Part shown: positions 53,526 through 54,825 of the stretch, one piece after another
How the letters are laid out: the number at the start of each line of letters is the position of its first letter
Position numbering within the stretch: the first letter of the stretch is position 1
Origin: Eledone cirrhosa
Taxonomy: Eukaryota
DNA: 64,000 nucleotides
Direction of reading: 5' to 3'
Assembly (NCBI GenBank): GCA_964016885.1
Contig: OZ024741.1
Coordinates: forward strand, 45,632,001 to 45,696,000
Translations under genes and position numbers: made by a program
Notes under the pieces: generated by a model
Told to the model about the DNA's origin: nothing
Database searches by the model: none
Seen by the model: only the letters and a program-made list of their open reading frames with translations

Positions 53526-53800
53526 CTTTATATATATATATTAAATGTATAAATTGAGTTAGGAACTCAAAATAGTCTCTTACAACAAAATAGCTCTAAG
53601 AAACAGATATTTCTGAGCTGTATATTATAATAGAATATAAAAGAAAAGCGAACACAGATATGTAGATATATGTGTTCAAATCTTAAGGGACCTGATCCGC
53701 TAAGGTGAAAAGAATACGAACTATAGACAATTGGATTCGCTTGTCTCAATTTAAGAAAGAATTAAAAAATAAATACAAACCGGAATTGTGGTAACTACCA

Positions 53801-53878
53801 ATCACCCAGACAACTTGTTGTTGTTTCGCAAAGTTAATTATGAATAGAAATACTAATCCAAGCTCATCAGTGAGTGAT
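53801..53878 (-). ncRNA. Type I hammerhead ribozyme
   Basis: Minus strand: ATCACTCA-CTGATGA-GC...GC-GAAA-CAAC(AACAA)GTTG-TC-TGGGTGAT. Confidence 0.85.
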
Positions 53879-54370
53879 GAATTAGTATCCTAGACACATC
53901 TATGTTTGCTATATATAAAATATAAAACAGCGCACATGGCATCCTAGCGAGTCTTACAAACCCACATCACTAAAATTCCGGTTTGTATTTATTTTCTTAA
54001 TTTTTTCTTAAATTGAGACAAGCGAACCTAATTGTCTATAGTTAGTATTCTTTTCACCTTAGCGAATCAGGTCCCTTACAATTGGAACACATATATCTAT
54101 ATATCTGTGTTGGTTTTTCTTTTATATTCTATTATATTATACGGCTCAGAAATATCTCTTTCTTAGAACTATTTTGTTGTAAGAGACTATTTTGAGTCAA
54201 TATATACATTTAATATATTCGGCTCCGTTAATTTGTTGAGCTATTTCAAATGTTGAGTAAACCTGGCTGCTATTTTTAGTGGCGTGGGTTTGTGAGATTC
54301 GCTAGGATGCCATGTGCGCTGTTTTATATTTTATATATAGCATACATAGATGTGTCTAGGATACTAATTC

Positions 54371-54445
54371 ATCACCCACTGATGAGCTTGGATTAGTATT
54401 TCTATTCACAATAAACGTTGCGAAACAACAAGTTGTCTGGGTGAT
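54371..54445 (+). ncRNA. Type I hammerhead ribozyme
   Basis: ATCACCCA-CTGATGA-GC...GC-GAAA-CAAC(AA)GTTG-TC-TGGGTGAT: perfect 8-bp stem I, GUC cleavage after C54437. Confidence 0.88.
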
Positions 54446-54825
54446 TGGTAGTTACCACAATTCCGGTTTGTATTTATTTTCTTAATTCTTTCTTAAATTG
54501 AGACAAGCAAACCCAATTGGCTATAGTTAGTATTCTTTTCACCTTAGCGAATCAGGTCCTTTACGATTTGAACACATATATCTATATAGCTGTGTTCGTT
54601 TCTCTTATATATTCTATTATATATACATATATATATATATATATATATATATATATATATATATATATATATATATATATATATATATATATATATATAT
54701 ATATATATATATATAGTAATAATAATAAATTTGAAGACTAAATTCCAAAGAGGGCTCGATAAGGATAAATATATATCAAATATATAAGAACCGTAGAGCA
54801 AATATTTATTAAAATAACAGATTAA

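Follow-up and report, generated by a model that had tools for sequence, protein, structure and literature searches.

The window, i.e. the whole stretch of 64,000 nt of Eledone cirrhosa DNA that was analysed, is AT-rich animal DNA, rich in (TA)n tracts, in which two loci carry the same repeat. When the window was compared with itself after masking of microsatellites, positions 35396-35888 matched 54625-54150 over 493 nt (89.7% identity, E 5e-156), which confirms that one sequence occurs at both loci, as claimed in an earlier reading made without database searches. The boundaries given by that sequence-only reading (35385-35863 and 53545-54620) were corrected to 35396-35922 for locus A, including its inverted arm, and to 53536-54626 for locus B. 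Both loci consist of two arms, and the inversion that had been noticed in each corresponds to the inverted copies found there.

A contiguous monomer of 485 nt lies at 53974..54458 (+ strand), and the unit reaches about 496 nt once two deletions are filled in. The end of the unit had been seen to run into its own start; in fact, a direct repeat of 169 nt (93% identical), with a period of 485, is present at 53974-54626. As judged from frame length and GC content (0.33), the unit is a non-coding, low-GC sequence: its longest stop-free frame spans 49 aa, with neither an ORF nor a coding remnant, in agreement with the sequence-only reading, it has no apparent LTR-type structure, and none of the arms at either locus continues into an RT ORF. 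The monomer is predicted to be strongly self-paired, with a z of -5.0 when folded as a linear and -4.5 as a circular molecule, the latter value being the lowest among 15 regions tested; seven of eight random controls fell between -1.7 and +1.6, and one at -2.9. Within the 64-kb window, the unit showed no homology to PLE UTRs (best E 0.045), and a master copy of a longer autonomous element is absent.

Elsewhere in the window, a U2 snRNA-like sequence (47602-47775, - strand; 58.3 bits in Rfam), whose 3' part overlaps a dispersed SINE-like repeat, is probably a chimeric pseudogene. The SINE-like repeat, of ~200 bp, is abundant and partly tandem (4110-4568, 13116-13967, 15459-15648, 42597-42805 and 48674-48858), and we take it to resemble octopus SINEs.

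Locus A adjoins an intact Hydra-clade PLE (35984..40687, + strand), whose ORF (36826-39039, 737 aa) shows RWR, DKT, YRDD, CxCx5C and GIY-YIG-like motifs. Its identification as Naiad was considered and dropped, since RT precedes the endonuclease and the Hydra motifs are present. Among 120 relatives listed for the 737-aa protein, the three with a named eukaryotic source are all from Argonauta hians; a Pfam search with four PLE-like proteins found nothing. The element has an inverted arm, a partial tandem and a one-sided tail of ~100 nt, its right arm measuring 4184 nt on a 3900-nt unit. Its repeats are 0-1% apart, its 3' UTR is ~1.55 kb long, and its hammerhead ribozyme (HHR) is minimal, with a palindromic stem III (cores at 36588+, 40488+ and 36083-). 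Judging from these sequences, it is a young, candidate active element, which shows the type of machinery and is only a putative partner of the repeat unit.

A PLE family whose 3' end resembles an HHR when assessed by eye, having GUC, a long stem II and a core that is either U3-A8 or degenerate, occurs at 5982-9141, 40813-41849, 53341-53530 and 62679-62864, several copies being tiny fold-back insertions with a tail. A third family (54717-57210 and 52394-52622) has an HHR-like fold with the core CAGAAGA, a 140-bp UTR tandem and a ~90-nt tail. The fourth PLE-like insertion (31788-35146) has inverted 400-bp arms, 99% identical, which enclose tandems of 139/222 bp and the remnant of a GIY-YIG domain (32158-32298). 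The divergence between PLE arms in the window ranges from 0 to 9%, and six of eight PLE-type two-armed insertions are extended on one side only, by 84-105 nt with a few flank bases counted in; one of the remaining two was misaligned, though its tail is visible, and the other (31788/35146) had no tail within the span given. The extension alignments were out of register for locus A and 52394. A layout of inverted copy, tail and (TA)n is described for PLEs, nearly every Hydra family having (TA)n as its target (Craig et al., 2021, PMC8557442), and work on Poseidon shows that the tail is delimited by two RT start sites inside the element and that both DNA strands are extended (Frangieh et al., 2024, PMC11167929).

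Insertion anatomy and the bulged hairpin

Unit positions were counted from the predicted ribozyme cleavage site, values above the unit length belonging to the next unit. At locus B, the right arm (53974..54626, +) covers 1.35 units (22->673), its 3' terminus falling within (TA)n at site 1, and the left arm (53536..53975, -) is inverted and 5'-truncated (321->749), ends at site 2 and bears the tail. At locus A, the long left arm (35396..35866, -; 216->672) ends at site 1 and the short right arm (35868..35922, +; 219->265) at site 2, within (TA)n. For all four arms, the 3' end maps to one of two fixed unit positions, ~188 (site 1) or ~265 (site 2), which are 77-85 nt apart; each locus uses one end of either kind, and only the 5' ends vary. 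The arms lie head to head at both loci, with a 2-nt microhomology at the junction of locus B and a fold-back with a 4-nt loop at locus A, where short and long arm show 1 difference in 54 nt. The stretch from site 1 to site 2 forms a PLE-type, one-sided tail at 2 of 2 loci; it measures 85 nt at 53536..53620 (-) and, owing to an 8-nt deletion, 77 nt in the right arm of locus B. Further PLE-type features are the inverted copy and the 5' truncation, present at both loci, and the partial tandem, present at locus B only. The join of the tail to the HHR, with no ORF, is common to the two independent loci.

Three of the four ends lie in (TA)n of at least 6 repeats and the fourth, the left end of locus A, in a short TA run. 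Three of them also share their (TA)n with the 3' end of another PLE-family insertion (35923-35983, 53530-53540 and 54627-54715, the last being a target tract shared with the tail end of the separate insertion at 54717-57210), which indicates that such tracts are repeat landing sites. Beyond the long arm of locus A, we also observed that 15 nt of this arm's 3' end are copied once more (35381-35395), as would be expected if a telomerase-like RT had slipped and re-initiated; this is a single case.

The sequence-only reading had described the unit as circularly permuted between the loci, and had named fixed linear ends as one observation that would speak against its interpretation. What was found lies halfway: the 5' ends do vary, and the 3' ends are fixed at two sites, so that free circular permutation was rejected. 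What looks like permutation results from starts that are fixed and truncation that varies, the template exceeding one unit in length. Since each of the three long arms passes through the ribozyme cut site and none begins there, the template was either uncut or re-ligated.

The unit has eight UA tracts, and both loci use the same two, namely those followed by a bulged hairpin; by our estimate, the same pair would recur by chance in about 1 case in 28. The hairpin can be written as RCUC-[stem-loop]-UN-GAGY, and both fixed sites are located 0-4 nt 5' of one. The first, H1, is intact at 53593..53618 (-), immediately 3' of site 1, and is found with one change in its 3' strand at 54144-54169 (+). 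The second, H2, is at 54222..54241 (+), 3-4 nt 3' of site 2, and at 35786..35805 (-) in locus A.

A scan of the window gave 23 matches to this motif, as compared to 1.5 ± 1.3 (maximum 5) in 100 shuffles, a ratio that is inflated because the motif was defined after seeing the elements. Three matches are in the focal family and 10 in three RT-bearing PLE families of the window, where the same hairpin opens the tails; 3 are in two other ORF-less HHR families, together with 2 antisense echoes, and 5 rows correspond to 4 other loci. In the intact PLE (hairpins at 36695, 36786 and 40595), one hairpin follows each of the two sites. When the outer pair was left unconstrained, 26 of 49 rows had A-U (14) or G-C (12). 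Among the four loci that were not used in the definition of the motif, two carry it 75-78 nt from a (TA)n end, one 113 nt from a microsatellite, and one is not near a microsatellite, against a background of 7% for a hairpin 55-110 nt from such an end. The elements at 20857-21083 (+; a 145-nt palindrome with a tail), 21845-22090 (-) and 9830-9960 (-), with a bulged hairpin 75-113 nt before a microsatellite, are probably further PLE-type ends.

Six Hydra consensus sequences from the supplement of Craig et al. (2021) were inspected by eye. The exact motif occurs in three of them, i.e. the coral Hydra-2_Amil, the sea cucumber Hydra-1_Ajap (twice, about 60 nt apart) and Hydra-2_Ajap, and near-matches in two; no such hairpin was seen by eye in the consensus of Hydra-1_Obim (Octopus bimaculoides), which is listed as having no pLTR. 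The words hairpin and stem-loop are absent from the main text of Craig et al. (2021, PMC8557442), and a literature search whose scope left out most subscription papers and the Repbase notes found no description of a shared hairpin. We infer from the sequence comparisons that the hairpin may recruit or position the RT.

The hammerhead and its sister families

The type I hammerhead in the right arm of locus B (54371..54445, +) has a complete core, with CUGAUGA at 54379, GAAA and GUC, and a predicted cut after C54437. It comprises an 8-bp stem I, a 4-5-bp stem III and a 2-bp stem II with a 32-nt loop. Further copies are located in the left arm of locus B (53801..53878, -; core 53870, predicted cut after 53809) and at locus A (35577..35654, -; core 35646, predicted cut after 35585), so that the type I core, stems I and III and GUC are present in all three long arms. 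The hammerhead had previously been called canonical on account of an 8-bp stem I and GUC. These features and the core stand, but the short stem II with its long loop does not fit that description, and in the locus A copy an A.C mismatch at the first stem I pair beside the cut leaves a 7-bp stem I. Moreover, none of the Rfam hammerhead families reached its gathering score, the best match being RAGATH-1-hammerhead (18.7 bits vs. a gathering threshold of 56.3, E 0.56). A whole-window Rfam scan by e-value was discarded, its output being microsatellite noise. For each of the three copies, the predicted minimum fold is other than the hammerhead, which lies 2.9-6.8 kcal/mol above it when tertiary contacts are left out.

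Within 54357..54404 (+), a helix of about 14 bp is predicted between 54357-54370 and 54390-54404 in loop II, and only 10 of 2000 loop shuffles gave an equally good pairing. According to the models, this helix can be either a pseudoknot onto stem I or an inhibitory hairpin; folding programs use it to block stem I locally. No compensatory change in the helix was found among the three focal copies and, across families, the pairing is strong in the focal unit and weak in the 27-kb family (6% of shuffles), with no clear signal in the 43-kb family. Many hammerheads with stems II of 1-2 bp are stabilised by pseudoknots (Perreault et al., 2011, PMC3088659).

Two other families of ORF-less HHR monomers are present in the window. 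The 27-kb family (27138..27846, -) has a period of ~523-543 and carries H1 and an exact H2, and the 43-kb family (42791..43361, +) has a period of 460, an inverted arm, a tail and H1. Their hammerheads have 8-bp stems I of differing sequence, short stems II and long loops; the two families share the layout of the focal unit, with compensatory stems. In the 43-kb family the hammerhead is the predicted minimum fold, which makes it a better candidate for cleavage. In the 27-kb family, about 50 nt separate the 3' end from the H1 that follows, and the right arm of the 43-kb family stops about 20 nt short of its H2; the rule of a start just 5' of the hairpin is therefore inexact in these families.

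Whole-unit alignment to the sister families scored 192, as compared to a maximum of 184.5 in 200 shuffles; in the comparison with AT-rich window tiles, the values were 175 and 167.5, and unrelated tiles reached up to 199.5. Since the whole-unit test fails against such tiles, the kinship relies on the shared structure and on pairwise tests outside the HHR, in which 9, 20 and 17 of 1000 shuffles were as good (339, 53 and 7 of 500 for the downstream segments), and is moderately supported. An array of about 8 units of ~470-480 bp, each with CTGATGA...GAAA and with (TA)n between them, was also observed at 22385-26771; the scan gave no bulged hairpin match in it.

Template and mobilisation of the unit

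Arms that meet head to head in TA-rich targets, with 3' ends fixed at two sites, 5' ends that vary, a one-sided tail and the shared hairpin, all observed at two loci only, lead us to regard the unit as very probably a non-autonomous, ORF-less partner of Hydra-clade PLEs, of the non-LTR retrozyme type, which their proteins would move. A Hydra-PLE protein would bind the bulged hairpin and nick (TA)n on both strands; on one strand, cDNA synthesis would start at the UA tract that immediately precedes H1, and on the other at the one preceding H2. From there, copying would proceed towards the 5' end over varying distances, passing unit junctions and the ribozyme site, and the two cDNAs would finally be joined by microhomology or fold-back.

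Three competing explanations were considered. The pieces might be truncated 3' ends of a longer autonomous PLE with tandem HHRs in its UTR, with no ORF-less family involved. Most PLE copies are in fact reported as 5'-truncated and many HHRs as solo remnants (Cervera 2014, PMC4209133), and the window holds no master copy; however, the tail and H2, which in the intact PLE lead to the ATG within about 40 nt, lead to the HHR at both loci, the unit has no coding remnant, and two sister families have the same ORF-less layout, all of which makes this explanation unlikely. The resemblance of the arms to terminal inverted repeats and the near-perfect hairpin of locus A could instead suggest a DNA-level fold-back or MITE, or an assembly chimera. 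We consider this very improbable, given that the arms end at different sites, leaving the tail, with variable inner ends, that those of locus B differ by 7% plus indels, unlike an artefact, and that the ribozyme stems covary across families. Equally improbable is an endogenised viroid-like replicon unrelated to PLEs: the unit is small, structured, ORF-less and HHR-bearing, but it has a PLE tail and a PLE hairpin, and a check for viroid- and Obelisk-like features found neither a hammerhead core on the antisense strand nor an ORF, other ribozyme classes being covered through Rfam only.

As to the template of such a PLE partner, the sequence-only reading had proposed reverse transcription of a circular or multimeric RNA. 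A template of more than one unit is supported by the three long arms that cross the cut site and by the arm of 1.35 units, but a circle is not specifically indicated, as the coding PLE next door also makes more-than-unit inverted insertions. Since this element, with its 4184 nt on a 3900-nt unit, leaves the same anatomy, the latter points to PLE machinery and not specifically to a circle. An uncut tandem transcript and a re-ligated circle are about equally probable templates. The notion of a circle, which the earlier reading had put forward, is already in print: Cervera (2014, PMC4209133) suggested that PLEs are copied by rolling circle, and Cervera & de la Pena (2020, PMC7229834) proposed a circular template for animal retrozymes.

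A ribozyme-cut, ligated circular monomer that is copied by rolling circle is, in our opinion, plausible, at somewhat less than an even chance. It would agree with the crossing of the cut site by all long arms, with the 27-kb relative, which spans two cut sites, with the circular-fold z, and with a predicted fold in which stem I forms and stems II/III are swapped into an inactive arrangement, as would protect a circle; moreover, circular forms of coral, mussel and axolotl retrozymes are reported to accumulate (PMC7229834). Besides the anatomy shared with the 3.9-kb coding PLE, it is opposed by the report that the Poseidon PLE mainly uses uncut RNA in vitro, HHR mutants inserting normally (PMC11167929), and that only 1 of 9 Xenopus retrozyme dimers was cleaved in vitro (Li 2026, bioRxiv 10.64898/2026.07.22.740005). 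Also counting against it, the 5' end of the right arm of locus B lies 21 nt downstream of a cut site, as a once-cut linear dimer would have it, a single case that would arise by chance with a probability of about 5%. Repeats within locus B differ by 6.7-7.4%, as compared to 7.4-8.0% between the loci; the two ranges being about equal, the repeats do not show a single template, and age alone can be enough to explain the divergence within locus B. In the post-HHR segment the four copies form a near-star, with 6, 5, 5 and 5 private changes and two 2:2 sites in 162 columns, and in the HHR and tail segments the copies of locus B lean closer to each other.

Taking the PLE-partner interpretation further, the hairpin could be a clade-wide RNA signal for template choice and for the two RT start sites, and diverged, ORF-less circular RNAs with pseudoknot hammerheads (three families in 64 kb) could have kept only this signal and the ribozyme, being copied round the circle by Hydra-PLE proteins. 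We regard this extension as possible but rather doubtful. If it is true, the natural template of ~490 nt and the intact neighbouring ORF allow a direct test of whether circles give rise to the partial tandems of PLEs. PLE mobilisation of animal retrozymes has so far been argued from co-occurrence and pLTR similarity; here, the unit itself bears a PLE insertion signature and a candidate cis-signal in common with one named clade. New here are the tail signature of PLEs, borne by an HHR unit that has no ORF, and a candidate for a clade-wide start signal. RNA recognition by PLEs, and the origin of tandem and inverted insertions from circles or linear multimers, are stated to be open in PMC8557442 and PMC11167929. 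The hairpin lends itself to precise testing by mutation and, as a motif, to inexpensive searches for the ends of Hydra PLEs and their passengers.

Comparison with known systems

Metazoan non-LTR retrozymes (PMC7229834; Li 2026) are described as ORF-less, with a low GC content, a type I HHR and a head-to-tail junction, and the unit shares all of these, as well as a highly self-paired monomer (predicted) and the co-occurrence with PLEs. Its length is inside the 51-972 bp range of Li (2026, bioRxiv 10.64898/2026.07.22.740005) and above the 170-400 nt given for invertebrate non-LTR retrozyme units. Unlike these retrozymes, it forms no array of two full same-orientation HHR units at the two loci, and it has a 2-bp stem II, a long loop and a possible pseudoknot. 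As far as the accessible text of the two sources goes, no counterpart is described for its inverted arms, its tail and the shared cis-hairpin. Li (2026) argues that retrozymes are non-autonomous PLE derivatives and, in the part of the preprint available, samples no mollusc; our literature search found no paper on a cephalopod retrozyme. Unlike the pLTR homology reported there, the unit shares with PLEs of the window the hairpin alone. The same preprint uses the term 'active' for at least two complete head-to-tail HHR units, while the longest run at the two loci is 1.35 units with one HHR; monomers are also counted there as family members. With pseudoknotted hammerheads (Perreault et al., 2011, PMC3088659; RAGATH-1-hammerhead) the ribozyme has in common a stem II of 1-2 bp and a loop II able to pair with the region of stem I, but the helix predicted here, of ~14 bp, could instead block folding, and the Rfam score is far below threshold.

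Non-autonomous Chlamys elements, e.g. MRC1, resemble the unit in being described as non-autonomous PLE derivatives with pLTRs and head-to-tail insertions; they differ in belonging to a green-algal clade with N-terminal EN and in mostly having no canonical HHRs (PMC8557442). The Poseidon PLE of Anolis (Frangieh et al., 2024, PMC11167929) is reported to have a tail defined by two neighbouring RT start sites within the element, an AT-rich target and copies that span the uncut HHR, as seen here. However, RT starts in Poseidon in an AC-rich stem-loop within the ORF, unlike in the unit, whose ends map to UA tracts that directly precede a bulged hairpin, repeated in non-coding RNA. Compared with autonomous Hydra-clade PLEs, the unit has no RT/EN ORF (RT with C-terminal GIY-YIG; RWK, DKT, CxCx5C), its HHR is larger than those in the Hydra table of PMC8557442, and its tail of 77-85 nt exceeds the 30-40 bp described there for PLEs in general. 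Nevertheless, it has in common with this clade, as described by Craig et al. (2021, PMC8557442), (TA)n targets, an HHR near the 3' end, an inverted 5'-truncated copy, a partial tandem and a one-sided tail, together with the bulged hairpin that we recognised by eye in half of the six published consensus sequences.
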